From: a virus
Taxonomy: Duplodnaviria; Heunggongvirae; Uroviricota; Caudoviricetes
Direction: 5' to 3' (one strand)
DNA length: 64,000 nt
Virus record (IMG/VR): IMGVR_UViG_3300029705_006930
Each line of letters opens with the position of its first letter. Within the stretch, counting starts at the first letter, position 1. The position numbers and the translations under genes are program-made. Positions 110 through 56,749 of the stretch are shown here, in pieces. The notes under the pieces were generated by a model. The model did not search any database, was not told where the DNA came from, and saw nothing but the letters and a program-made list of their open reading frames with translations.

Positions 110-1441
110 CTATATCTCATTTTCAATCTCCTCATCTTCATCGTTATATCGTATCGGACTACCTACGGGAAGCATCTCTAAAAATGCTGCTCCAGGCAAC
201 CAATATTTACTTCCATCATTTGTTCTTTTTGCAACTGAAAAATGTATGTGTGCTATGCGTCCTAAATAATCATCTCTGTGTTCCCAAAATTCTTTGCGTT
301 CTTCATCGCTATATCCAAGAGGCAGCACGACGTTGCTACCTTTATAATCAACTATAAAACTCTGCAGTATATCTTCATTTTCTTTTTTTGTGTAATCAAC
401 TATCATCAAATCTGCTTCATGCATTTGTCTTAGGTATAAGAAACTTTCACTGTTCTGTCGGTATTTATATAAGTCATAATCAAGATTAACTAAAATTCCT
501 GCGTATCCTTTTTCTTTGGCTACTCTGAATGCTTTTAAAATATTTCCTCTGTAACGTCCATTAAATAAAATCGGGGCAAGTTGTATATGTTCGGTAGGTG
601 TAAAATTCGTCTCTAAAAATGTTCGTCGGTCTTTATATATGTTTTTACATGTCTTACGGTTAAATTCTTTCAAAGATAATATGTCATAGATATAAAATAT
701 AATGTCACTTTTATCGCGCTCTGGCAGTCGGACTATCCATCGCTCTTTCATTCGGCGGTCATAAGGGGAGAGGTCTTTTGCATCCTCACCTTTATAAACA
801 AGTTCGCCATCAAATACCACTTCATCAAACGGCAAGTCATTAAATTCCTGCAAGAGTTCATCGAAGCCCTCAAGGACAATGCCGAAGCGTGTATACATTC
901 TTGCTTCGCCACATTCTTTGATAACAGCGCAGCGGGTGCCATTGTACCAACCGGAAACTGTGAACTGTCGCTGACGCACATAGTCTTCGTTACCATAGTA
1001 CAGCCCCGGCATCATCAATGGGATTTCATAAACAGTTCCCGCGCCATATACTGTATTGACCTGTTTGGCTGAAACATTTATTTCAAGGTCTCTCAGCACC
1101 GCATCAATCAAAAAGTCGTGGAGCTCAGCGGGGTAGAGGGTAAGAGAACCATGTATCTTTGCCACAGCTTTTTTATTACCCGCCCCCATATATGTCAGAT
1201 ATTCAAGCAGGTCATCACCTTCGCCTGTCACAAACGGCACAACGTCTTCGGCTGTAATTTCGGACGGCGCCCATTTATCAAAGATAAGGAAACGGCTTAA
1301 CCCAAGACGCGTTTTCCCAAACTGATACAATAAAAAGTCTGTCCACTTGGTATTTGTTGCATTACGGCGCAATATGCGTATTTTTTCATCATAAGATGTT
1401 GTGGCCGCCAACGCATCTGCAATTTGTTTAATTTCGTGTAT
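110..1441 (-). CDS. ATP-dependent DNA ligase-like protein with degenerate catalytic motifs (pseudo-ligase paralog of 55427-56749)
   Basis: Collinear with the ligase at 55427. VVFDGELV (motif III), IIFYIYDIL and the OB-domain end LGYSDEERKEFW are kept. Motif I reads SGWYNGTR (Lys to Trp), motif IV AGILVN (Glu to Ala) and motif V FLYLR. Start is set at ATA 1441, which lies 8 nt after GGGGG; the track's TTG at 1411 has no SD. Confidence 0.6.
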   Translation of the reverse strand: MHEIKQIADALAATTSYDEKIRILRRNATNTKWTDFLLYQFGKTRLGLSRFLIFDKWAPSEITAEDVVPFVTGEGDDLLEYLTYMGAGNKKAVAKIHGSLTLYPAELHDFLIDAVLRDLEINVSAKQVNTVYGAGTVYEIPLMMPGLYYGNEDYVRQRQFTVSGWYNGTRCAVIKECGEARMYTRFGIVLEGFDELLQEFNDLPFDEVVFDGELVYKGEDAKDLSPYDRRMKERWIVRLPERDKSDIIFYIYDILSLKEFNRKTCKNIYKDRRTFLETNFTPTEHIQLAPILFNGRYRGNILKAFRVAKEKGYAGILVNLDYDLYKYRQNSESFLYLRQMHEADLMIVDYTKKENEDILQSFIVDYKGSNVVLPLGYSDEERKEFWEHRDDYLGRIAHIHFSVAKRTNDGSKYWLPGAAFLEMLPVGSPIRYNDEDEEIENEI

Positions 1442-2620: not shown

Positions 2621-3442
2621 CTACCCATTTAATGCGCTGTCAATACTGTCCGCCATCGCATTAATTTCGCCCTGTGTTATTGTAAGGTATGTTTTTGTTA
2701 CGCGCTGGTCACTGTGCTTGTACTTTGCCTGCAAGATGTCCATAACACTGTCGTTGTTCATTGTTTTGCGCGCTGTGTATCCGTATGTTTTGCGCAGTGT
2801 ATGTGTTGCCACGTTCTGTGTGAGGCCCGCCGCCTTTGCACCTTTCTTTAAAATGTCCCACATTTGGTGCAGGCTCATTTGCCCGCCATTGTCACTTTTC
2901 TGGGACTTGATAAGGTAGTCGCTCATTGTATAGTTGCCGTTGAGATGTTCAATGTACATTTCAATGGCTTTTTTTGCGCCCGCTGTTATTTTGTTGCGAT
3001 TGTACTTGCCGGTCTTTTGTTCGTACACATCATAGTAATCTTTTACTGTACCATCCTCATTGAGAACGTCACTGATGCGCGCTCTGAGCAGGTCACTGCC
3101 TCTGTCCCCAATGGTGCAGCCAAACACTACCATCATATAATTGCGGTACTTGTGTCGGCCCCCATGTTCAAGGAAGTAGTTTGCGAGACGCTGAAATTCG
3201 TCCGCGCTGTAAAGAGGCTCTGCACTCTGTGCCTTTTTCACGCCATTGCTTTTGTAAGGCGACGCTGTTCTTGGTGCACGCTGTTTTGGCGCTGGCTTTG
3301 CTGCGGCCATTGCCTGAGCCACTGCATTTGCTATGATGCTCTGGAGCTCGTCCTGTGTCATTTGGAGCTTTGGTGCTGCCGCCTGTGCAGGAAAGTTGAT
3401 TGTATTATTCTGTACGTTTTGTTCTTTTGGCTGAGCGTTCAT
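2621..3442 (-). CDS. int: tyrosine recombinase / phage integrase (small, 273 aa)
   Basis: Catalytic-domain motifs are present: GDRGSDLLRARISDV (Arg), ATHTLRKTYGY (H-x-x-R) and HSDQRVTKTYL (His and the Tyr nucleophile). GGAGG SD. Confidence 0.8.
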   Translation of the reverse strand: MNAQPKEQNVQNNTINFPAQAAAPKLQMTQDELQSIIANAVAQAMAAAKPAPKQRAPRTASPYKSNGVKKAQSAEPLYSADEFQRLANYFLEHGGRHKYRNYMMVVFGCTIGDRGSDLLRARISDVLNEDGTVKDYYDVYEQKTGKYNRNKITAGAKKAIEMYIEHLNGNYTMSDYLIKSQKSDNGGQMSLHQMWDILKKGAKAAGLTQNVATHTLRKTYGYTARKTMNNDSVMDILQAKYKHSDQRVTKTYLTITQGEINAMADSIDSALNG

Positions 3443-3589
3443 AGGTGCCTCCTTGTTTGGATTTTTGTTTCCTCTTTTATTGTCTATATTATACCATGAG
3501 AGGGGCTCTTTGATAACGGGGTTTTTGAAAAAACCAAAGAACTTTTTTAAATTTTTTGTGGCGCTTTATATATGTTAATGTATATAAGG

Positions 3590-4200
3590 AAAGGTTGATG
3601 CGGTTGTTGCGGGGCAGTGTGATTTGGCGCAAAATTAGGCGATTTTTAGGGTGTTTGCAATTGTGTAAGGTCTGGTGTTGGAAATTTGGAAAGGTGTCTT
3701 AATGCCTGAATTTGAGGCTCTGGTGGGGTTATTCTATCACAGTGCTGACGCACTGTGGCGTCGCTGTGCTCCTTTATCTTATCAACGATGAAATGTTTGT
3801 TATTATGTTGCGCGAGAGAGGGTGTGGGGCGCGAAATTTGGGGGCCGGAGAGGTGGGAGGCGCGGTTTTGGGGCGAAATTGGGGCCCGGGTGGCCGGGGC
3901 TAAAATGGGCGTTTCCGGGGGTGTTTTGAGGGGTGTTTGGATAAGTTGCACAAAAATAGAAAAGCCACAGCCGGCTCTGTATGGGGCTAGCTGTGGTTCT
4001 TGTTGTTTATGGGCGTGATTTTGTTGTTTTTATAGTGTTTTGTGGCAAAAATGGTGAAAAAATGTGTAAAAAGGCGCGAAAATGCGTCAAAATGTGTGAT
4101 TTTTGATGATTTTTGGGTGGATTTGGTGTGGAATCAGGGCGAAATGGTGTGGAATGTTGTGTTTGGAGGGTGTTGTGGGGGTGAAAAGTGGACAAATATT
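3590..4200 (+). repeat. GT-rich, C-poor non-coding tract with at least 10 degenerate GAAAWTGKG repeats and clustered G4-5 runs
   Basis: Repeat examples: gcgaaatttggggg (3832), gcgaaattgggg (3873), taaaatgggcg (3901), aaaaatggtg (4047), aaaaatgtg (4058), gaaaatgcg (4078), caaaatgtgtg (4088), gcgaaatggtgtgg (4139). Seven G runs of 4 or more fall between 3824 and 3935. Composition is unlike the flanks. Confidence 0.6.
3964..4010 (+). terminator. putative intrinsic terminator inside the GT-rich tract
   Basis: CCACAGC (3965-71) pairs with GCTGTGG (3990-96), followed by ttcttgttgttt. Confidence 0.45.
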
Positions 4201-4390
4201 GCTTTTTATGAGCCGAGAGTGAGATATAGCGACGCGTAGCTTATTATATACATTAAATCTGTCGCAAAGTCAAAATATCCCCCTACGGCAGTTTAAACCG
4301 CTTTATATCGGTAAATATCAACCTTTGTGAAAAGTTGATATTTTTTGTACAAAATTTTTCGATTTTTCAAAAATCGGACGCTTGTTGCTA

Positions 4391-4419
4391 TTGACAATCT
4401 GTCGCTCAGGATTTACAAT
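4391..4419 (+). promoter_or_regulatory. sigma-70-type promoter TTGACA-17 nt-TACAAT
   Basis: TTGACA at 4391-96, a 17-nt spacer, then TACAAT at 4414-19. Confidence 0.6.
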
Positions 4420-4424
4420 TTTAA

Positions 4425-4505
4425 GTGTAAACCGACAAGTTTACACCTACAATTCAATATATCTGTTGTGATTGTTCAAAGGGGGGTACAGATACACAAT
4501 CACAA
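4425..4505 (+). promoter_or_regulatory. two inverted repeats in the leader of the sigma-like gene (operator or 5'UTR hairpins)
   Basis: GTGTAAAC-N6-GTTTACAC (4425-46) sits at the predicted +1. TTGTGATTGT...ACAATCACAA follows at about 4464-4505. Confidence 0.5.
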
Positions 4506-4545
4506 AATCACACACTATTCAATATTTAAAGGAAGGTATTTATCT

Positions 4546-5241
4546 ATGAAAAAACTCACAAGAAAACAGCTTAAAGCAATAAAAAACACATCAAGCTACA
4601 AATATTTTGAACAATTGAAAACCCTTAAAGGCTCAATGCCGGCAGACAGCAAAAAAACCTATATAGAGCCAAATTCAGACCTTGAAAAATTCGCAAAATT
4701 GCAAGTTATGACCTTAAACAAATATATCCGCCAAGACGGCAAGGGACACAACTTGGCAGCACAAGTTTTGCAAGATTTACAACAGCAAGCTTGTTTGCTT
4801 ATTCTGGAAAACCCTTTAAGCCTTGACTGCTTTACAACAGAACAAGATAAACAGACAGAACAACAGCAACAAGCATTTAAGGCGGTTAAAAATGGTTTAT
4901 ATAGGTATTATTATCACAACTATACAAGCCGCAGCACATCTAAAATTCACAATAACCCGTCAAGTTACATTGCAACAGCTACATATCAAGCAACCGACGA
5001 TATCGGCAAAGATGCACGCGACAGCTATCAAATGGACCTTTACAAATTACATCTGGATGCAATTTTGACAATTTTAACAACGGATGAAAAATACATCTTT
5101 AATGGTTTATTTGTTGAAAACTTAACACAAAAACAACTTGCCGAAAAACTCAATAAATCACAAACTTATGTAGCAAAAACACTTGCAAATATCCGTAGCA
5201 AAATCAAAGCAAATGACCTTGATACACCGATAAACAATTAA
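4546..5241 (+). CDS. sigma-70 region-4-like HTH transcription factor (possible phage sigma factor)
   Basis: Start ATG 4546 after GGAAGG. The C-terminus LTQKQLAEKLNKSQTYVAKTLANIRSKIK resembles a region-4 HTH. Confidence 0.5.
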   Translation: MKKLTRKQLKAIKNTSSYKYFEQLKTLKGSMPADSKKTYIEPNSDLEKFAKLQVMTLNKYIRQDGKGHNLAAQVLQDLQQQACLLILENPLSLDCFTTEQDKQTEQQQQAFKAVKNGLYRYYYHNYTSRSTSKIHNNPSSYIATATYQATDDIGKDARDSYQMDLYKLHLDAILTILTTDEKYIFNGLFVENLTQKQLAEKLNKSQTYVAKTLANIRSKIKANDLDTPINN

Positions 5242-5255
5242 ACCATTATATAAAA

Positions 5256-5284
5256 GGCGGTCACATTTGTGACCGCTTTTTTGT
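5256..5284 (+). terminator. intrinsic terminator
   Basis: GCGGTCAC-attt-GTGACCGC followed by TTTTTT. Confidence 0.75.
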
Positions 5285-5399
5285 TGTTCAGGTTATCAAA
5301 AAACATATAAATTATGTACAATTGTTGTAAAATATGGATAAATAAACCATTTTAAACTTTTTGGTAATATTTTTGAGTTTTCATTCAATATATATGCGA

Positions 5400-5951
5400 C
5401 AGCTAATAGCGGTTAGCGGTTAGGGTGTTAAGCCTTGCCCGCTTGACCGCTTTTTGTCTGTCTGTTTTGCTATGCTTAATTTGTAAGTATAGGACAGGAC
5501 AACCTACCAAGTAGGGACAGCCCAAACGCACAATGTTAGCGTGTTTTGGTTGAAAAAATTTCGGTTTTTTCTTACCTATTGATTGTGTCCCTTTAAAAAA
5601 GGACAGCGGTTCACTCCGCAAGCAAGCCGTCGAGAGATAGTAGATGTTGACACCCTCTTATAAACTGCAAGTAAGGTAGTAAAACAAAAGCCGTAAACGG
5701 CTTGGCTCTTTAAGGTGCCGTTTAGCTAACGGATAAGCGGAAATTGTTCAAAAAAATAATTTTTGTTTGTGAGCGGTTCATTGTGAATATCCAAGGATGT
5801 ACACAACCAAAATGAATTGCCGTCATTACATCTTAGGATGTAAAGGTGGTTACGCAAACGAACAAAAACGAAATTTTCAACAAGAGTATGTGAGAATGTT
5901 TACGATATTTCCAAAGCCGACAGTGAAATGATATATCTGTCGGCTTTTCTT
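5400..5951 (+). ncRNA. candidate large structured non-coding RNA locus (about 0.55 kb)
   Basis: No SD-led ORF. Contains repeated words (AGCGGTT x4, GCGGTTCAYT x2, GGACAG x4) and several local hairpins, and ends at the terminator 5915-5951. Confidence 0.3.
5915..5951 (+). terminator. intrinsic terminator
   Basis: AGCCGACAG (5915-23) pairs with CTGTCGGCT (5937-45), followed by TTTTCTT. Confidence 0.7.
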
Positions 5952-6053
5952 GTAAGCGAATAAGCTCAATAAAAAGTTTGTTCTCTTACAAGATTGTACA
6001 CTCGGTACAGTCTCATTGTAAACATACGCTACATATTCCAAGGAGTAACAATT

Positions 6054-7846: not shown

Positions 7847-8071
7847 ATGGAATACGCAGATTTGATAAACAATTTAATTGCATATCGAAAAAGTCAGAAT
7901 ATTACAACTGTCGAACTTGCTCAAAAAATGAATGTAAGTCGACAATCAGTATATAATATTGAAACTTTGAAAAAAGCTGCACCAGATGAAACTTTGCAAA
8001 AAATGTGTCAAGCATTAAATTTGGAACTTGAAATTGTCCCAAAGCAATACAACATCAAATCCCAAAAATGA
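7847..8071 (+). CDS. XRE/Cro-type HTH transcriptional regulator
   Basis: ITTVELAQKMNVSRQSVYNIE is a typical HTH_3 motif. Confidence 0.7.
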   Translation: MEYADLINNLIAYRKSQNITTVELAQKMNVSRQSVYNIETLKKAAPDETLQKMCQALNLELEIVPKQYNIKSQK

Positions 8072-16174: not shown

Positions 16175-16216
16175 TACACAATAAGAGAAATGTTTATGGT
16201 GAATATTGCACATTGT

Positions 16217-16500
16217 ATGGCAAGCTTTTGCTGTTAGCAGAAGTAAAGAAATGGTAGAGAACATAGAGGCAGGCGCTTAAGGAGCACGCTGAGGTGATTC
16301 CTAAGTACTGCAGCTTCTTGCATCCGACGAGCTCTGAAAAGGTAGGTTTAACAGGAGGATTGGATTACTTACAAGTGAAATTAACCAGTTCAAACCGTAA
16401 AGCTCATCTGAAATTAACGATAAATCCCAGATTTGCATCTCTTTTATCCGGGAATGAAGGGCTTAAAACTATAGCTAGACCATAAACAAGATAGGGAGGA
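16217..16500 (+). ncRNA. structured non-coding leader upstream of the RT (module A)
   Basis: Hairpin at 16225-43, GAAATGGTAG at 16248, enclosing stem 16217-24/16317-23. No SD-led ORF. Confidence 0.5.
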
Positions 16501-16504
16501 CATT

Positions 16505-17860
16505 ATGGTTTATATCACATATCCAGCACCTAACAAATTTCATCAGATTACATTTGAAGAAATGATGTCGGGCAATGTTAATACAGATAAATTAAGAATT
16601 TTAGGCGGACATAATACGCTTACTTTGCATCTTAACGATGTACCTGCAAACTTAAAAGGTCAGACTTCTGTACGCAAAATGATTGCAGATTTGCAGTATT
16701 TTGTAGGTGTATATTATGACACACTGATGCCACAGATAAAAGAATTTGAGAAGCTTTCAGATGCTCAGCGTCGCAGCGTCAAACAGCGTGACAAGATTGA
16801 AAATTATTTTGAACAGATGGGCGCAACTGCAAATGATGAAGACTTGCAGAAAATCACTGAACAGGTAGATGCGCTGCAGTGTGAAGTTGCAGAACAGCAG
16901 TATAAATATGCTTACTATACATTCGATTTGCGCAAAAGTTCAGCGCCGGAACACATTCCATTGTGGCGACTGCCAAAAGAATACAGACGTACAATCAATG
17001 CTCCGAACATACATCTTAAAAATGCGCTATATGAACTTAAAGAACTGTTTGAAAATATGATGATACGTACATATCATACTGCATCATTTGCGTATGTTAA
17101 ACATCGTGGAACTTTGGATGCTGTAAAACGTCATCAGAGCTGGGAAAGCAAATGGTTTGCAAAGTTTGACTTTTCAGATTTCTTTGGTAGCACAACAATT
17201 GACTTTGTTATGCAACAGTTCTCTCAAATATATCCGTTTAATATGATTTGTGCATATAAAGATGGTAAAGAAGCTCTTTATAAAGCATTGCAGTTGTGTT
17301 TTTTGGACGGTGGACTTCCACAGGGCACACCTATTAGTCCTCTCATCACAAACATAATGATGATACCATTTGACCACGCAATGTCAAAAGCTCTTAAAGA
17401 ATTTAAATATCCAAACAAACACGGTAGTGAACGTTTTGTGTATACAAGATATGCTGATGACCTGCTTATCAGTTGCCGTGTGGATTTTAAAGTGGAAATT
17501 ATTCAGGCATTTATTCTGGAAACTTTAAAATCAATGAATGCGCCTTTTAGCCTTAACGTTAAGAAAACTCGTTACGGTTCTAGTGCAGGTAGCAACTGGA
17601 ATCTTGGGGTGATGCTTAACAAAGACAATAAAATTACAATCGGTGCAGAAAACAAGCGCAGACTTAAAGCTTCTTTGAATTCATTTATCCTTGATATGAA
17701 GAATGAAAAACCTTGGGATATTTCTATGGTGTATAGACTCAGAGGTCAGATTTCTTATTATCGTAATGTGGAAAGGGAAGCAACAAATAACATCATTGCA
17801 GCGATGAACACAAAATATGGTGTTGATGCAGAAGCAATGATGAAATCTATTATAAGTTAA
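16505..17860 (+). CDS. reverse transcriptase, retron/UG(DRT)/Abi-like, with about 190-aa N-terminal extension
   Basis: KFDFSDFF, LPQGTPISPLITN, YTRYADDLLIS, KKTRYG, LGVML and a thumb-like RLRGQISYYRNV occur in order. GGGAGGA SD. Confidence 0.85.
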   Translation: MVYITYPAPNKFHQITFEEMMSGNVNTDKLRILGGHNTLTLHLNDVPANLKGQTSVRKMIADLQYFVGVYYDTLMPQIKEFEKLSDAQRRSVKQRDKIENYFEQMGATANDEDLQKITEQVDALQCEVAEQQYKYAYYTFDLRKSSAPEHIPLWRLPKEYRRTINAPNIHLKNALYELKELFENMMIRTYHTASFAYVKHRGTLDAVKRHQSWESKWFAKFDFSDFFGSTTIDFVMQQFSQIYPFNMICAYKDGKEALYKALQLCFLDGGLPQGTPISPLITNIMMIPFDHAMSKALKEFKYPNKHGSERFVYTRYADDLLISCRVDFKVEIIQAFILETLKSMNAPFSLNVKKTRYGSSAGSNWNLGVMLNKDNKITIGAENKRRLKASLNSFILDMKNEKPWDISMVYRLRGQISYYRNVEREATNNIIAAMNTKYGVDAEAMMKSIIS

Positions 17861-35770: not shown

Positions 35771-35785
35771 ACGGAGGTGAATCCA

Positions 35786-36598
35786 ATGATAGATTGTAAA
35801 TTTAATGTTGAAAGACGACTTCAGCATCTTGCTGATTATGTAAAGGTAAATGACTTGACGGATAAAAAGCTTGCAGTTTTGCAGGTGGGAGATAATCCAG
35901 CTTCTAATTCTTACATAAAAGGCAAGAAAAAAGATGCGGACAAAGTAGGAATAACAGTACATCATATTAAATACGAGAACGACATCACGACTGATAAAAT
36001 TATTGAAGATATCAAACAGCTCAATAATAATGATGATGTGCTGGGCATTATTGTTCAGATGCCAATTCCAGAACATCTGGACAAAGAAAAGATTATTTCA
36101 ACTATTATTGACAATAAAGACGTTGACGGTTTTAAAAAGACAAGTCCATTCTTGCCATGCACACCGCTTGGTATTATATCAATTTTGGACGACATTAAGT
36201 ATGATGTTAAAGGCAGGACTGTATGCATTTTAGGACAGGGTCATGTGGGACGACCATTGACTCAGCTTCTGATGGATAGAGGGGCAACAATTGTTAGCTG
36301 TAATAGCAAGACACCTTTGCTGCAACGCAATTGTTATATGCGAACAAGTGATGTCCTTATTAGTGCAGTTGGACGCAAAGATTTGGTATTGCCAGGTAAT
36401 TTTTGGGATATGTTTTCTCAACGTTATGAATTTCCAGAAGTAATGATTGATGTTGGCATTAATCGCGATGAAAATGGTAAATTGTGCGGAGACTTTAGCC
36501 CAGAACTTTATGATTATGTAGAGAAAATTACTCCAGTGCCAGGTGGAGTCGGTCTTTATACAAGAGTCTCACTGCTTGAGAACACTATATATAAATAA
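35786..36598 (+). CDS. folD: bifunctional methylene-THF dehydrogenase / methenyl-THF cyclohydrolase
   Basis: LAVLQVGDNPASNSYIKGKKK, GIIVQMPIP, KDVDGF, CTPLG, ILGQGHVGRPL, DVGIN and PVPGGVG occur in order. Confidence 0.85.
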   Translation: MIDCKFNVERRLQHLADYVKVNDLTDKKLAVLQVGDNPASNSYIKGKKKDADKVGITVHHIKYENDITTDKIIEDIKQLNNNDDVLGIIVQMPIPEHLDKEKIISTIIDNKDVDGFKKTSPFLPCTPLGIISILDDIKYDVKGRTVCILGQGHVGRPLTQLLMDRGATIVSCNSKTPLLQRNCYMRTSDVLISAVGRKDLVLPGNFWDMFSQRYEFPEVMIDVGINRDENGKLCGDFSPELYDYVEKITPVPGGVGLYTRVSLLENTIYK

Positions 36599-43397: not shown

Positions 43398-43916
43398 ATG
43401 GCAAGAATAGTTACTTGTGCTGTGACAAAAGAAAAAGGAACCAGTGATGTTTTTTATAAGGCGGACAATGGAAAATGGTATAAGAGCGAATCTGTATTTC
43501 GTCAGTTTCAGAAAGATAAACACACCAGAGAAACTATTCAACGTGTTTTACTTACATATCTTGGATATCAGAAAGGAGAGCCATTTCCGGCTCTCCTCAA
43601 CAAAAAGATAAAAGAATATTCTTTTTATTCACCAGAAGTATTGCTTGAAACAATTACAAAGTGTGAAAAAGACATTACATGGGCATTCAATAATAAAGAA
43701 TTTTCTTCTACACAAGGCAAAATATTTTATATGTTTGCAATCATTTCAAATCATATCAGTGATGTGAATAGACAAAACAATAAAGTGAATGAGCTAAGAA
43801 ATAAACAAACTCAAAAACACATCGATACCATCCAAGAAATGGACATTTCAACCATCGGCACATCAAAAAAAGGTAAAGATATTACGGATTTCTTGGAGGA
43901 TGATTTATGGAATTAG
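43398..43916 (+). CDS. hypothetical protein (C-terminus FLEDDLWN)
   Basis: ORF track. Sits in the replication module. Confidence 0.6.
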   Translation: MARIVTCAVTKEKGTSDVFYKADNGKWYKSESVFRQFQKDKHTRETIQRVLLTYLGYQKGEPFPALLNKKIKEYSFYSPEVLLETITKCEKDITWAFNNKEFSSTQGKIFYMFAIISNHISDVNRQNNKVNELRNKQTQKHIDTIQEMDISTIGTSKKGKDITDFLEDDLWN

Positions 43917-45379
43917 ATGTATTGTTGCAAAAAATTAATGAACATCGTGGTGAAATTGAAGCCCCATTTGTTTTTTGTTTATGGAAGAATCCGGATTTAT
44001 ATGATGATTATAAATTTGTAAACGAAAAAGAAGACGATATCATTCGTAATCCTGATGCACAGTTTTATTTCAATTTAGGTAGAGCACTGTATAAAGCTGG
44101 ATATCGCAATTTTGACCATATTGCTGTCTACACTTTTCTTCAAGACAAAGAAACAATAAAAAAGCAGTTTGACAGTTATGGTGGTTTCAAAGAAGTTGAA
44201 GAATTTAAAGGCTTAGTCAGCATAGAGAATGTTAATGCATATTTTGATAAAGTAGCAAGACTTAATATTCTTGATGAAATGTGCAAGATGATGTTTTCAT
44301 CATTTGATAAACTTGAAAAGTTTGATAGGATGACAAGTCAGCAGATTTACGATTATTTTGAGTACAAATTAAATGACATTAGTATCACCGCAACGCATGA
44401 TGTTGAAGAAGAAAGTTTGGTCATTGATGATGCTTTTATTGAAGAGTGCAATAGCGGTGATACTGTTGGAATCAGTTATGGCAAGCAGTGCCCATTATTG
44501 AATTATTTAACATTAGGAGTTCCACTTGGTGAAATGTATATGATTGCTGGACATAGTGGTGCAGGCAAATCTAGTTTTGCATTTGAAAATATGGCTATTC
44601 CAATGGCCCAAGACGGCATAAAGGTAGCTATTGTTTCTAATGAAATGCGAAGCAAAGATTATAAAGTAATGTTACTTGCCCATATATTAACAAAAGACCT
44701 AAATTATTGGGGCTTGACACGCAAACAAATAAAAATAGGCCACTTTACAGACGAACAAAAGATAATGATTGCCAAGGCACAAAAAATTAGTAAAGAAAAA
44801 TATAGCAATCTCAAATTTGTGAAACTGTTTGATAATGATGTTTCTAAAGTTATGAAATACATCAAGATGAACGCCAAAAAAGGTTATCAGGTTTTTCTAT
44901 GGGACACAATGAAGAGTGATGATAGTCTTGATGAAAAAATGTTTTTGCAATTATTAGTCAATAGCAGAAAGGTTTTTCAGTTGGCATCAAAAGAAAACAT
45001 TGCAATTATTACAACTTATCAGTTGGCACTATATACCGTTAATCAAAGATATTTGGATGCGGGATGTCTTGCAAATGGTAAACAGATAAAAGAAGTGTTT
45101 TCTGAAATGGTTTACATGCGTACTTTATGGGATGACGAATACACAGGCAAAAAATTTGATTGTCGACCATACAATTTACAGCGTAATGCAGAGGGCAAAT
45201 ATACTGGTGTTAAGCAATATGTTGAATTAAACCCAGATAATAAATATATAGTTGTCTTTTTGGATAAGACTCGCAATGATGAAGACAAGCAGCAGGTTTT
45301 ATACGAAGTAAACGGTCGTTTTAATAGCTGGAAAGAAATTGGCCGTTGCAACATAGTTAATGAACATGGAAGGTATTAA
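43907..45379 (+). CDS. dnaB: replicative DNA helicase, DnaB family
   Basis: Walker A GHSGAGKSS, then VSNEMRS and IITTYQL. Size and N-domain are consistent with DnaB. Confidence 0.75.
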   Translation: MELDVLLQKINEHRGEIEAPFVFCLWKNPDLYDDYKFVNEKEDDIIRNPDAQFYFNLGRALYKAGYRNFDHIAVYTFLQDKETIKKQFDSYGGFKEVEEFKGLVSIENVNAYFDKVARLNILDEMCKMMFSSFDKLEKFDRMTSQQIYDYFEYKLNDISITATHDVEEESLVIDDAFIEECNSGDTVGISYGKQCPLLNYLTLGVPLGEMYMIAGHSGAGKSSFAFENMAIPMAQDGIKVAIVSNEMRSKDYKVMLLAHILTKDLNYWGLTRKQIKIGHFTDEQKIMIAKAQKISKEKYSNLKFVKLFDNDVSKVMKYIKMNAKKGYQVFLWDTMKSDDSLDEKMFLQLLVNSRKVFQLASKENIAIITTYQLALYTVNQRYLDAGCLANGKQIKEVFSEMVYMRTLWDDEYTGKKFDCRPYNLQRNAEGKYTGVKQYVELNPDNKYIVVFLDKTRNDEDKQQVLYEVNGRFNSWKEIGRCNIVNEHGRY

Positions 45380-49275: not shown

Positions 49276-51809
49276 ATATGGACTATCCCTCTGACAATGA
49301 ATGCATAAAGCGTTTTTTAGACCAAGGAATTTTTACTGAGACAGAAATTCAACGTGCAATGGATAACACAGATATCTGCTTAACATTTGAGAATTTTTAT
49401 TTTAGTAAAGATATTAAACTACCAACTTTATATCCAGACAAGACTCAAGAGGAAAAGAACAAGATATATTCAAGACTGATTACAAAAAAGTTTAAAGAAT
49501 ATATGAAATATGTTCCTGCTGAAGACTATGACAGATATTATCAAGGTGTTAAAGAAGAAGTTCAGGTATATAAAGATACTGGTATGGTTGACTATCCGCT
49601 AATCAACTATGAAGTTATTAAGCGCGGGATTGAATTGGGCGGGGTAATTACAGATAGTGGACGTGGTTCCGCTGTTGGCTTCTTCACAAACACATTGTGT
49701 GGATTCTCAAAAGTTGACCGTTTTACATCTGCAATTCATCTTTATCCAGAGCGCTTTATGTCAACAAGCCGAATATTAGAGTCCGGCTCCCTACCAGATA
49801 TTGACTTTAACGTAGCTAATACTGAGCCTTTTGAACGAGCACAAAAAGAAATACTTGGAGAAGAACATTCATATCCAATGATTGCATTTGGCACTTTGAA
49901 AAAGAAATCTGCTTTTAAGCTTTATGCAAGAGCAAAAGATGTGCCAGCTGCCATTGCAAATGAAATCACAAAACAGATTGAAAAATATGAAAATGATTTA
50001 AAACATGCCGATGATGATGACAGGCGCGATATAAATATCTATGACTATGTAGATGAACAGTATCATGACCATTTGAGACAGAGTGAATCATATTGGGGTA
50101 TCATTTCTGACCGCAAAAAAGCTCCATCGGCACATCTCTTATATCAAGGCAATATTCGTAAAGAAATTGGGCTCATTAAATGTAAGAGTGAAAGTACCAA
50201 GAAGGAATGCATCACTTGTGTTATTGATGGTGCAGTCGCAGAAGAATATAAATTTTTGAAAAATGACCTGCTCACTGTAAATGTGGTGGATATTATTGAC
50301 CGTGTTTTTAAACGTATTGGCATTGAGCATTTTAATGTAAATACATTGTTGGGACTTATTAAAAATGATAAACCGACTTGGGATATTTATGCTAAAGGTT
50401 TGACTATAGGTGTTAACCAATGTGAAAAAGCCTCAACAACAAAAAAAGCAATGCGATATAAACCACGAAACCCATCTGAGCTCTCGGCATTTATAGCAGG
50501 TATTCGTCCAGGCTTTAAATCAATGTATCCGATTTTTGAAAGTAGACAGCCGTTCTCATATGGAGTTGCTACACTGGATAATCTGCTGATTACCGAAGAA
50601 CTTCCGATTCCCTTTATGATTTTCCAGGAACAGACAATGAAAGTCCTTAACTATGCTGGATTTCCAATGGACGAATGCTATGGTCTTATTAAAGCTATCA
50701 GTAAAAAGAAACCAGAAAAGGTAAAAGCAATCAAAGATGATTTTATTAAAAATTTCTGCAAACAAATTCAAGAAGATAATGGACTTGATTTTGAAATTGC
50801 ACAAAATAACAGTGAAAAAGTATGGACAGTAGTAAATGATAACTCAGGTTATGCATTTAACAGTTCTCATGCATACTGTATGGCGTTGGATAGCTTATAT
50901 TGTGCTTATCTCAAATCTCACTATCCTTATGAATTTTATGAGGTACTTCTCACATTTTATTCCAACAAAGGCAACAAAGATAAAGTTGCTGAACTGAAAA
51001 GAGAAATGCTCCAAGGTTTTGGTATCAGAGAAGGCAAGTTTAAGTTTGGCAATGATAATCGCAGCTTTAAAGCCGACAAAGAAAACGGTGTTATATATTC
51101 ATCACTATTATCATTAAAAAATATGAACCAGAAATGTTCTGAGGACTTATATGCTTTATCACAAAAAAAACAATATACAAACTTTTTTACACTGCTCAAA
51201 GATATTAAACAACTTAAGAGTCTGAAATCTGACCAGCTTAATATTTTGATTAATATTGGATATTTTGATGATTTTGGTACAGTCCCACAGATTCAGACAT
51301 TTGTAAAAGCATATGACGACCTTTATGGACGAGCTCAATTTTCCAAAGATAATCTGGATGCTAATTATGCAGCACTTATTGCTGCTGACAGTACGCAGAC
51401 TGAAAAACAATATCGCAACTTTGATTATGAAAATGCATTGCATAAATTGTGGATGCAAATTCCGCCAATTAAATTAGGTTTGCATCAGAAAATTAAAAAC
51501 GAACTTGAATATTTTGGATACATACAAACAATCATACCAAAGCTCTCAGATGAATATGTAGTCGTAACTGATAAGATTGACAAATATTCGAAACTGACGG
51601 TCACGGTTTATGTATTACAGACTGGAGCAATTCATACTTATCGAATGCGAAGCAGAGTTGCAGAGCAATGCGGAACAATTAATGTGGGCGATATTATTAA
51701 ACTGATGAAGTTTAGCGAAGAAAAGAAATGGACAAAAAATGTCAACGGAGATTGGGTACACACAGATGAAACCGAAACACTCATTAAAAAATATGCACTG
51801 ACAAGATGA
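49276..51809 (+). CDS. dnaE: DNA polymerase III alpha (DnaE-type), exon 2 / polymerase core
   Basis: GRGSAVGFF...VDRF...PDIDFNV (palm), then the finger and OB-like regions. Confidence 0.85.
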
Positions 51810-55426: not shown

Positions 55427-56749
55427 ATGAGACAAATATTAAATATGAGAGAAACATTAACGCGAGTAAGTTTTTTATTTAAGACTATTGCGAGTACACC
55501 AAGGACAACTGAAAAGAAACGATTGTTGCGTTATATCAACAGCTCAGAACCAGAGAATGTATGTGAAATGTTTCTGTATACTTTACGATTTTTATTGGAT
55601 AACAATGTAACAACAGGTATCGATAAAAAGAAACTCAAAGCTCAAATTAATATGCCTGATATTAATTTTCCAATGAAATGGTCACATATGTTGGAATATA
55701 TCAAAGAAAACAATACAGGAAGGCATGAAGATATTCGCAGAGCACAGCTCTTTATCGAAGATAATCCCGAGAATGCGGAATTTATTGCTGATATTATAAC
55801 AAAATCATATAGGTTAGGACTGACAGCCAAAACAGTAAATGAAGTTTATGAAGATTTTATTCCTGTTTGGTCAGTACAGCAGGCATATCCTTTGGAAAAA
55901 TATCCGCTTAAGGACGGAGAATGGTTTTCTTTATCACAAAAGCTTAATGGGTTCCATGCCTCATATTACAAGGGTAAATTAATAAGCCGACAAGGAAAAG
56001 AAATCAAAGGTTGTAAGCACGTTATTAACGCAATAAACAACTTTAAACTTCAAGATTTCTTTATTGATGGCGAGCTTATCCGGCGTAATGATATTGAACC
56101 TCATCTCTCAGACGAAGAAAATTTTCGACAGACTGTTTCAATTGCGAATTCTGATTCTGACGACAAAACAGACCTGTGTTTTATTTATTATGATATCATT
56201 CCAGCTGATGATTTTGACAAAGGCAAATGTGAAATAACATATCGCCAACGTCTTAATGACATGCATAAATTAAACAGTATAATTCTGCAGACTCCATTTT
56301 ATAAAACGTTTCATATGGTGAAATGGTTTTATCACGGCAATGACCAAAAGAAAATTCAGTTTTGGCTTGATTATGCAAATGAAAATGATATGGAGGGTCT
56401 TATGTTAAATAAGGATACTGTATATCAATGCAAACGTAATTCAGGCATTTTAAAGGTAAAAAGTTGGAAACATTGTGACCTTAGAGTAACGGGCGTTGAA
56501 GAAGGCGATGGCAAATACAAAGGAACCCTTGGAAAACTGATTGTGGACTATAAAGGAAATACTTTGGGATTAAGTGGAATGAGCGATGAGGAACGTTATA
56601 TATTTTGGAATAATCCACAGGACATAGTTGGGAAGATTGTGCTCGTTAAATATAAACAGGAAACAAAAGACAAAACAGGTAAACGTAGTTTGCAGTTCGC
56701 AACCTACCAAGGTGTTAGAACTGATAAAGATGAAGTCAGCTACAATTAA
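55427..56749 (+). CDS. ATP-dependent DNA ligase
   Basis: Motif I SQKLNGFH, motif III FIDGELI, motif IV EGLMLNK, motif V ILKVK, plus an OB domain. Confidence 0.8.
   Translation: MRQILNMRETLTRVSFLFKTIASTPRTTEKKRLLRYINSSEPENVCEMFLYTLRFLLDNNVTTGIDKKKLKAQINMPDINFPMKWSHMLEYIKENNTGRHEDIRRAQLFIEDNPENAEFIADIITKSYRLGLTAKTVNEVYEDFIPVWSVQQAYPLEKYPLKDGEWFSLSQKLNGFHASYYKGKLISRQGKEIKGCKHVINAINNFKLQDFFIDGELIRRNDIEPHLSDEENFRQTVSIANSDSDDKTDLCFIYYDIIPADDFDKGKCEITYRQRLNDMHKLNSIILQTPFYKTFHMVKWFYHGNDQKKIQFWLDYANENDMEGLMLNKDTVYQCKRNSGILKVKSWKHCDLRVTGVEEGDGKYKGTLGKLIVDYKGNTLGLSGMSDEERYIFWNNPQDIVGKIVLVKYKQETKDKTGKRSLQFATYQGVRTDKDEVSYN

Follow-up and report, generated by a model that had tools for sequence, protein, structure and literature searches.

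The DNA analyzed in this study, a 64,000-nucleotide (nt) stretch of a virus of the class Caudoviricetes (IMG/VR record IMGVR_UViG_3300029705_006930; hereafter the window), harbors a G-rich, C-poor tract at positions 3590-4200, located between a leftward gene encoding a short tyrosine recombinase and a long rightward gene arm. Based on sequence comparison, this tract is a real functional cis-element, because it is G-rich on one strand, predicted to be bent, terminated by an invariant 12-mer, and recurs in distant relatives. On the same comparative grounds, it is deeply conserved and compositionally extreme, belongs to an uncharacterized clade of large Firmicute phages, and contains an invariant motif that is defined here. 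We tentatively propose that the tract is the cis-acting core of an early control region and that its most likely role would be that of a transcription-activated (R-loop-type), iteron-free, bidirectional replication origin.

For uncultivated phages of the gut and rumen, almost nothing is known about replication origins and early control regions, which present annotation pipelines miss. The element described here provides a landmark that can be defined from sequence, namely, extreme one-strand G-richness, followed by GAGCCGAGAGTG-N8-9-GAC and then by a C-run, beside a short tyrosine recombinase gene. This landmark recurs among phages that share only about one-third of their recombinase residues.

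Composition, predicted bending, and terminal block of the tract

The tract lies at the divergence point of two gene arms, with 42 of the 45 open reading frames (ORFs) of at least 150 amino acids (aa) to its right being encoded on the + strand over at least 60 kb, which agrees with the strand switch between a leftward integrase gene and a rightward arm that an earlier sequence-only reading of the window had noted. Base counts in the tract were A129, C68, G220, and T194 (36% G, 11% C, and 68% G+T), and the 600-nt GC skew of +0.52 at 3601-4200 was the maximum of the window (mean 0.125, standard deviation 0.11); the GT-rich, C-poor tract of about 600 bp described in that reading is therefore real. 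The same reading had reported an abrupt change in composition and a plus strand almost free of C. The former holds for the sharp right end at 4200-4210, whereas the skew begins further left than supposed, at about 3500 (approximately 90 nt left of 3590). The latter holds for 4000-4200 (3-8 C per 100 nt) but not for 3700-4000 (13-20 C per 100 nt, mainly within two hairpins). The tract is keto-rich (G>C, T>A), with +214 G-C and +126 T-A per kb, as compared with +45 G-C and -75 T-A per kb (A>T) in the coding right arm.

Seven runs of G4-G5, also seen in the earlier reading, start at 3826, 3840, 3870, 3881, 3896, 3917, and 3930. A G-quadruplex predictor, the use of which had been recommended there, identified 3820-3933 (+ strand, loops of 1-12 nt) as the sole canonical quadruplex motif on both strands of the window, including 3870-3921 with stricter loops of 1-7 nt. 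The number of G-runs was that expected from composition (20 vs. 18.1 in shuffles), and the shuffle comparison revealed no clustering of G-runs above composition. In terms of RNA:DNA hybrid stability, 3791-3990 read as + strand RNA was the predicted global optimum of both strands, as calculated by the nearest-neighbor difference between hybrid and duplex free energies (ddG), which amounted to -32.8 kcal/mol per 150 nt (mean +0.6, standard deviation 5.9; minimum of the other strand, -17.3).

To the right of this G-run field, tracts of A4-6 and T4-5 alternate with G-runs and repeat every 10-11 bp over approximately 130 bp. TRF detected a 10-bp tandem periodicity at 4047-4161, and the AA/TT Fourier power of 4010-4212 was 34.7 at 10.5 bp vs. 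5.5 in shuffles, a result that is independent of the parameters of the wedge model. Under the wedge model, 4001-4137 represented the most curved 126 bp predicted in the window, with an end-to-end/contour ratio of 0.34 (window mean 0.95; next-best region 0.745).

The tract ends in a block with the layout GAGCCGAGAGTG-N8-GCGAC...CCCCC, in which the 12-mer ATGAGCCGAGAGTG occurs once in the 64 kb. The possibility that the block is a repeated promoter for a phage RNA polymerase or sigma factor was rejected on account of this single copy. The two arms of a perfect 13-nt inverted repeat lie on either side of the tract (3575-3587 and 4244-4256), the right one inside the block. The block, the curvature at 4001-4137, the inverted repeat, and the deep conservation of the layout beside the recombinase gene had all been overlooked by the earlier reading. 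In the window and in three relatives (L012, L016, and L018), the block opens with ATG AGC CGA GAG TGA, a four-codon mini-ORF (window 4207-4221) that is probably fortuitous, because the ATG is missing in L010, L013, L014, and the main gut subclade (e.g., L105 and L109).

Degenerate GAAAWTGKG repeats, which had been put forward as a possible iteron field, gave nine matches with no more than one mismatch, all on the + strand, vs. 2.4 in dinucleotide shuffles of the tract (p ~0.001). The excess is real but weak, the motif was defined post hoc, and the rumen relatives show no enrichment of its core; the repeats, being only weakly above composition-matched chance and unconserved, do not represent conserved iterons. 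The longest families of direct repeats comprised two or three copies of 19-31 nt with 64-80% identity. The terminator-like hairpin that had been described within the tract was recovered at 3963-3998 (-26.3 kcal/mol, z -3.8) and has a U-rich tail on either strand.

The ORFs predicted in the tract are of low complexity (Pro-rich or Gly/Trp-rich), as had been stated, and have no family match. In a clade of gut relatives (see below), the G-rich stretch contains many insertions and deletions (indels), of 21, 23, and 34 nt. Because these indels in the homologous stretch include lengths that are not multiples of three and no ORF has a family match, the tract is non-coding. In this clade, the mean identity of the recombinase gene was 96% at all positions and 90% at third codon positions, as compared with 88.5% in the leader, 73% in the block region (with an invariant core), and 65% in the G-rich stretch, which diverges faster than synonymous sites with many gaps and nonetheless keeps its composition. 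A footprint of single-stranded DNA deamination as the source of the G/T-richness was rejected, since recent substitutions had no + strand bias (per site, C>T 0.24 vs. G>A 0.35 and A>G 0.15 vs. T>C 0.13; small counts). As the recent substitution spectrum is not G-biased, the G-richness appears, with these small counts, to be maintained by selection on a physical property and not on the sequence itself.

Conservation of the layout in rumen and gut relatives

The identical phage (100%) was present in nine independent metagenome contigs, with no sequence variation and in one orientation; goat/rumen samples such as JGI 3300024303 and ENA ERZ27248446 are among its sources. Five of the nine assemblies (L005-L009) break in or just after the tract, at window positions 3647, 3915, 3988, 4355, and 4360. 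These differing positions suggest that the region is hard to sequence or assemble, owing to low coverage of G-rich DNA, rather than that it contains a fixed end.

A rumen clade of six relatives (L010, L012, L013, L014, L016, and L018), with recombinases 52-62% identical to that of the window and contigs of up to 128 kb, shares the layout. In each of the six, a gap without genes, 0.6-2.5 kb long, precedes the recombinase gene and contains a same-strand G-rich, C-poor stretch that ends in the block. The most curved DNA of the locus was predicted 160-430 bp upstream of the block in L012, L014, L016, and L018, and curvature ranked top at the homologous place in these four as well as in L103, L112, and L116. 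The 10.5-bp phasing is common to the window, L016, and L018, and the phasing of A/T tracts is weak in L010 and L012. An extended -10 promoter at a matching offset (+46 to +58 from the recombinase start codon) was found in nearly all relatives. In L010, L012, and L013, the tract is fed by strong rightward sigma-A promoters (11-12/12 plus TG) that are arranged back-to-back with the promoter of the recombinase gene. The early rightward promoter located beyond the block in the window has a counterpart in L012 and L016, likewise at about +200 from the block. Flanking inverted repeats of other sequence were identified in L013 (22 nt, 95%) and L014 (22 nt, 91%), resembling multi-copy operators of the TGTAAAC type, and none was found in L016, L018, and L109. 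TGTAAAC-type sites recur on both flanks of the tract in L013 and L014.

In addition, a metagenome scan yielded a gut clade, consisting of human-gut contigs of 145-162 kb with recombinases 32-40% identical and the same order of parts. The recombinase gene and the extended -10 promoter belonging to it come first; next are a rightward promoter (ATGACA-18-TATAAA) and a leader of 240 nt carrying three phased TGAAATTG motifs, both conserved, and then a stretch rich in G (35-39%) and poor in C (8-13%). The sequence GCCGAGAGT(G/T)-N8-9-GAC follows, then a small hairpin with a T-run, and finally a C-run and a palindrome. The last of these (AACCTTT...AAGGTT) is related to the palindrome that follows the block in the window (4313-4343).

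The G-rich tract and the block were thus found in all seven rumen-clade sequences (the window and six of six relatives) and in approximately 17 of 19 gut-clade loci. A third lineage, represented by L101 (112-kb contig), has a shorter G-rich stretch and the T-run/C-run end without the 12-mer. Among 138 loci of recombinase homologues, strong skew was detected in 18 and the block in 21, coinciding in this phage group; the remaining 117 loci had one chance match to the block and no comparable skew, and the tract is absent beside more distant recombinase homologues. The element is located at 0.46-0.59 of the total length in seven of the eight relatives on contigs of 112-162 kb.

GenBank phages showed no DNA similarity to the window tract or to the gut-clade element, and the best GenBank match of the recombinase (MT835544) lacks the tract. 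A recombinase pattern search of IMG/VR gave no match. GTDB genomes contained no close relative (best 37%), and there is therefore no evidence of an integrated prophage or of an attP/attB junction. A gap of Thomasclavelia phage TR-TP1 with GGGGAAATTCG-like motifs was not used as evidence, because the motifs are oppositely oriented relative to the adjacent tyrosine integrase, which is unrelated. The complete TR-TP1 record (PQ571309.1 89.2-89.6 kb; L021 8200-8600) starts and ends inside a 1.1-kb divergent non-coding gap. Three rumen relatives (L012 2450-3400, L013 3100-4060, and L014 2300-3200, minus strand of the locus) contain tandem near-consensus sigma-A promoters and, after these, about 800 nt of GC-richer sequence that is free of genes, includes conserved islands (e.g., 34 nt 100% identical between L012 and L013), and may be a large non-coding RNA (ncRNA); this region had no Rfam match and no homologue anywhere in the window.

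A candidate transcript-primed origin and competing explanations

In the reading that we favor, the host sigma-A RNA polymerase would start at the early rightward promoter next to the recombinase promoter and would make an untranslated G-rich, C-poor RNA that escapes Rho. Since hybrids rich in rG:dC exceed the DNA duplex in stability, this RNA would stay paired with the C-rich template and form an R-loop, which the G-runs of the displaced strand may stabilize. The curved A/T-tract array, the AT-rich flanks, and the GAGCCGAGAGTG block would mark the site of hybrid processing or of loading of the phage helicase/polymerase. Forks would then depart both ways, co-oriented with the two diverging gene arms, and the adjacent Xer-like recombinase would resolve replication dimers nearby. 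We infer transcription through the tract, R-loop formation, and initiation from its composition, curvature, conservation, non-coding status, position, and promoter-like sites. The points that we count in favor of an origin are the position at the divergence of the arms, the non-coding status, a layout conserved without conservation of sequence, the selected composition, the R-loop propensity, the upstream promoters in relatives, the precedent of phage c2, the curvature, and the mid-contig location.

The c2-type (Ceduovirus) origin is free of ORFs and of ribosome-binding sites (RBSs), lies between divergent modules, is bracketed by the first two early promoters, replicates a plasmid without phage proteins, and differs in sequence among subgroups (PMC7150918). 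Its early transcript is essential according to Schiemann et al. (2004), as cited in PMC7150918. The present tract resembles this origin in being intergenic, several hundred bp long, ORF-free, RBS-free, and located between divergent modules, as well as in the two predicted same-direction early promoters that bracket the region and in a layout that is kept while the sequence varies between subgroups. In particular, the upstream promoters in the relatives, together with the second promoter approximately 200 nt past the block, form a two-promoter, ORF-free, RBS-free arrangement like that of c2. However, the c2 origin comprises 611 bp in a 22-kb phage with host replication, whereas the present phage encodes its own polymerase and helicase, and its tract has 36-52% G and 3-15% C, with an invariant block, extreme curvature, and an adjacent recombinase gene.

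Other R-loop or transcript-primed origins include RNA II of ColE1, oriF/oriG of phage T4, mitochondrial CSBII, and herpesvirus oriLyt. In these systems, as is predicted for the present tract, a promoter feeds a G-rich non-template stretch with quadruplex-capable G-runs, and the hybrid is predicted to be unusually stable. They differ in using short G-runs instead of a G-skewed tract of 0.4-0.7 kb and have no sequence similarity to the tract, in which the R-loop is predicted. Intrinsically curved A-tract DNA is known from the bend of kinetoplast minicircles and from upstream of the early promoters of the Bacillus phages SP82/SPO1. The array in the tract likewise has phased A4-6/T4-5 tracts and a predicted bend far above the rest of the window, but this main bend, itself a prediction, is located approximately 300 bp upstream of the early promoter and within a strand-asymmetric G-rich context.

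Several findings weigh against an origin. The tract has no identified initiator gene next to it, and the genes for replication, i.e., those encoding a DnaB-like helicase (43907-45379), a DNA polymerase (PolIII-alpha-like, 49278-51809), and a Sak4-like protein, lie at 42-52 kb, approximately 40 kb from the tract, and not next to it as the sequence-only reading had supposed in naming a DnaB/primase module. The same reading had suggested a winged helix-turn-helix initiator in the conserved 317-aa neighbor (1456-2409), a proposal that was not substantiated. This protein had no match in Pfam, PDB-profile, or NCBIfam searches, homologue searches gave three proteins, its single-sequence AlphaFold model (pLDDT 36) was unusable, and a helix-turn-helix with a wing at residues 195-240 is suggested only by the secondary structure of this low-confidence model. 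The tract contains no classical iterons (at least three near-identical direct repeats of approximately 17-22 bp) and no cluster of DnaA boxes (TTATCCACA), with a single one-mismatch box at 3936-3944 in the tract and 30 in the window vs. 25 expected. The window's own rightward promoter candidates upstream of the tract, at 3779-3806 and 3525-3553, are weak (9/12), and the terminator-like hairpin at 3963-4009 divides the tract. The canonical quadruplex motif is kept at the homologous place in L010, L016, and L018 and is missing in three of the six rumen relatives (L012, L013, and L014); therefore, quadruplex capacity is not the conserved property. The c2 transcript is mildly G-rich (81 G and 51 C of 330 nt, with one G8 run), and the analogy with c2 is therefore architectural, not compositional. 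A cumulative skew analysis, as recommended by the sequence-only reading, did place an inflection by the tract, with the cumulative G-C curve of the window lowest at 3163 and its T-A curve highest at about 4500, and the tract is thus bracketed by two skew switches; the skew switch is confounded with the switch of gene orientation at the same place and thus offers no proof of an origin. Finally, the hybrid stability and the wedge-model curvature are predictions that depend on the parameter values used. Of the roles considered in the sequence-only reading, the comparative data favor an origin-like or transcribed element, and they do not support the iterons, the adjacency to DnaB, or the winged helix-turn-helix initiator.

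A broader proposal, which we regard as doubtful, is that an undescribed clade of 110-160-kb Firmicute phages (rumen, human gut) shares a new origin module composed of a promoter-driven, selected G-rich R-loop tract, a bent arm, a GAGCCGAGAGTG hybrid-to-fork site, and a dedicated Xer-like recombinase. If the tract is a transcript-primed origin, the principle of c2, ColE1, and T4 would extend to large phages carrying their own replisome, and bacterial viruses would provide a case of G-rich R-loop initiation, otherwise found mainly in mitochondria and herpesviruses. Such an origin could also help to build replicons and to follow the replication of these phages in situ through peak-to-trough ratios in metagenomes. 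If the tract is an elongation-control or recombination element instead, the invariant 12-mer would be a new recognition site with a partner worth identifying.

Control of elongation is a different, rather unlikely explanation, in which the tract would be a cis-acting transcribed leader governing transcription into the 60 kb of the rightward arm. Rho would fail to see the untranslated RNA, which is poor in C and rich in G, and the 12-mer would be exposed either in this RNA or on the non-template strand. There it would serve, in the manner of ops, nut, or qut, in pausing or in recruiting a processive antitermination factor, the phage sigma-like protein, or an RNA polymerase. The conserved rightward promoters upstream, the second promoter downstream, the invariant single-copy 12-mer at the 3' end of the leader, the small hairpin and T-run after the block in the gut clade, and a selected composition whose C-poverty is the opposite of a Rho-utilization site are all consistent with such a leader. 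Moreover, the 12-mer presumably shares A7, G8, G10, T11, and G12 with the RfaH ops element, and the gut-clade 12-mer fits GG-N8-TG, which we take to be the consensus elemental pause. However, the window yielded neither a NusG paralogue nor a known antiterminator, conserved RNA structure was not detected either, and the extreme curvature and the tract length of 0.4-1.4 kb would be left unexplained. The main early promoter is also located downstream of the block, so that most rightward transcripts would lack it.

The curvature and the flanking repeats could alternatively belong to an architectural looping DNA, in which a curved spacer would join regulators bound at operator-like sites on the left (3575-3599) and right (4244-4256, 4313-4343, and 4427-4448) and thereby co-regulate the divergent early promoters. 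This explanation, which we consider unlikely, would account for the perfect 13-nt inverted repeat and the common AAAGGTTGAT half-site that flank the tract, for the flanking repeats of other sequence in L013 and L014, with a palindrome on the right side and two TGTAAAC-type copies in direct orientation on the left side, and for the extreme curvature, and small HTH_3 proteins are conserved in the rightward arm. Nevertheless, L016, L018, and the gut clade lack flanking repeats, and the weak A/T-tract phasing of L010 and L012 does not agree with it. As looping needs no strand asymmetry, it also leaves the G-rich, C-poor composition and the invariant block unexplained.

The recombinase gene adjoins the tract invariably across 32-100% identity, and the enzyme is short and Xer/Cre/FimB-like, which raises the question of whether the tract is its target or accessory region. 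It would then be a dif/cer/lox-like resolution site with long accessory sequences, or an invertible segment, i.e., a fimS/RecV-type switch between the 13-nt repeats in which the strand asymmetry would make Rho termination dependent on orientation and the inverted junction would read TTAATGTATATAA+TAAGCTACGCGTCGC. Candidate core-like palindromes (10-12-bp arms and 3-9-bp spacers) after the block and the inverted repeats flanking the tract in the window, L013, and L014 agree with such a site. We nevertheless consider it improbable: no contig in the opposite orientation was found among the nine same-phage assemblies and all relatives (approximately 30 sequences), the clades have no palindrome or inverted repeat in common, and G-richness is not known to have a role in the sites of tyrosine recombinases. 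Invertible promoter switches with tyrosine recombinases are represented by E. coli fimS with FimB/E and by the RecV switches of Clostridioides difficile. They resemble the present locus in that the gene for a short tyrosine recombinase adjoins several hundred bp of non-coding DNA flanked by short inverted repeats, and differ from it in that the locus has a single orientation and flanking repeats that are not universal. Single-recombinase Xer systems and plasmid resolution sites (XerS/difSL, Cre/loxP, and cer/psi) similarly have a recombinase gene beside a presumed site, to which the candidate palindromes of 28-31 bp just outside the tract might correspond, but no palindrome is conserved across clades here, and the long G-rich tract has no counterpart there.

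The tract might also encode a trans-acting G-rich, C-depleted ncRNA of about 195 nt, running from about 3814 to the terminator at 3963-4009, or a longer one, that would serve as a protein or RNA sponge or form RNA quadruplexes. The promoter-like site at 3779-3806, the good terminator, and, in the gut clade, the promoter, conserved leader, and T-run are compatible with such an RNA. Rfam 15 gave no match at E<=1 in 3000-5000 and none at gathering score in the window and four loci, ARAGORN detected no tRNA or tmRNA, and RNAalifold, applied to the block and to the whole gut-clade element, produced no helices or helices on invariant columns only, with no fold supported by covariation. A long-range pairing of UUUCGGC with GCCGAGA was rejected, as it had no rumen-clade equivalent and its duplex energies equaled those of shuffles. 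In addition to the missing family match and fold, the sequence of the G-rich part is hypervariable, an RNA so poor in C cannot build stable helices, and the terminator-bounded unit is not conserved in L016 and L018; a trans-acting RNA is thus hardly probable.

A packaging (pac/cos) site, genome terminus, or telomere with T/G-rich repeats, the first of which the sequence-only reading had also listed, is very improbable, because the element is located near the middle of seven of the eight large contigs, the same-phage contigs end at five different positions, and no terminase gene was found nearby, in spite of the TTTTGGGG-like units in the tract, the several low-coverage same-phage contigs that end in or near it, and the distant cultured TR-TP1 record that starts and ends in an analogous divergent gap.

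Feature map and neighboring genes

The features of the tract and its flanks are listed in Table 1.

Table 1. Features identified in and around the G-rich tract (window positions).
Feature	Position	Strand	Evidence
Xer/Cre-type tyrosine recombinase, 273 aa; always the first gene leftward of the tract	2621-3442	-	PF00589 1.4e-12; phrog_216 9e-34
Leftward sigma-A-type promoter of the recombinase operon, TTATCA-17-TGgTATAAT	3488-3516	-	
Left arm of the perfect 13-nt inverted repeat, TTAATGTATATAA	3575-3587	.	Right arm at 4244-4256
AAAGGTTGAT, half-site of the 4313-4343 palindrome, following the left inverted-repeat arm	3590-3599	.	
First G/T-rich, C-poor segment with GAAATTKG-like repeats	3590-3737	+	Composition, repeat scan
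Hairpin CACAGTGC-TGAC-GCACTGTG; counterpart in L016/L018, CTGC-TGRC-GCAG	3738-3757	+	Folding, z -2.0
Candidate rightward extended -10 promoter, TTATCA-16-TGtTATTAT, weak (9/12), directly upstream of the G-run field	3779-3806	+	
G-run field, ~50% G; core of the stretch predicted as most R-loop-favorable (3791-3990)	3820-3933	+	Quadruplex search, ddG
Conserved motif TTGCACAAAAATAG, common to L016, L018, L010, and L013	3946-3959	+	
Stable hairpin with U-rich tails on both strands; resembles a bidirectional intrinsic terminator	3963-4009	.	Folding
Phased array of A/T tracts and G-runs, 10.5-bp period, 2-7% C	4010-4206	+	TRF, Fourier
Invariant single-copy block at the tract end: 12-mer ATGAGCCGAGAGTG (4210-4221), GCGAC (4229-4233), CCCCC (4279-4283)	4207-4283	+	
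Palindrome AAATATCAACCTTT-GTG-AAAAGTTGATATTT; possible operator or recombinase-core-like site	4313-4343	.	Inverted-repeat search
Strong rightward early promoter, TTGACA-17-TACAAT	4391-4419	+	
Operator-like palindrome GTGTAAAC-N6-GTTTACAC, overlapping the start of the early transcript	4427-4448		
Sigma-70/ECF-family sigma-like protein, first gene of the rightward arm	4546-5241	+	TIGR02937, 1.5e-8

The leftward arm (minus strand) contains the genes encoding the recombinase, which also had weak matches to XerA, XerD, and FimB/E-type invertase profiles, the conserved 317-aa protein, and an ATP-dependent DNA ligase. Two genes for ATP-dependent DNA ligases were identified, one per arm (110-1411, minus strand, and 55427-56749, + strand), both assigned to phrog_114. 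Beyond the start of the window, the leftward operon continues with genes encoding a YonO-like two-barrel RNA polymerase (623 aa, PF05183; L001 9556-11427) and a GIY-YIG/HTH_38 protein. Among cultured phages, the Thomasclavelia phages TR-TP1 and TR-TP2 (46% identity) and Enterocloster phages carry the closest relatives of this polymerase, and in most of these records the polymerase gene lies within a few kb of the record end.

In the rightward arm, the sigma-like gene is followed by approximately 790 gene-free nt (5250-6040) with no ORF longer than 72 aa, which contain a clean terminator (5256-5285) and further hairpin/T-run units (e.g., 5690-5705 and 5914-5948). A small HTH protein is encoded at 7847-8071. 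A gene encoding a retron-type reverse transcriptase was identified at 16505-17860 on the + strand (NF038233, retron St85 family, 1e-46, below the family cut-off; RVT_1; phrog_2825), and the 330-nt gap upstream of it (16175-16504), which had no Rfam match, could hold its ncRNA. The arm also harbors a gene encoding a FolD-like methylenetetrahydrofolate dehydrogenase/cyclohydrolase (35777-36598, + strand; phrog_7320, 2e-61), which may be an auxiliary metabolic gene for nucleotide synthesis.

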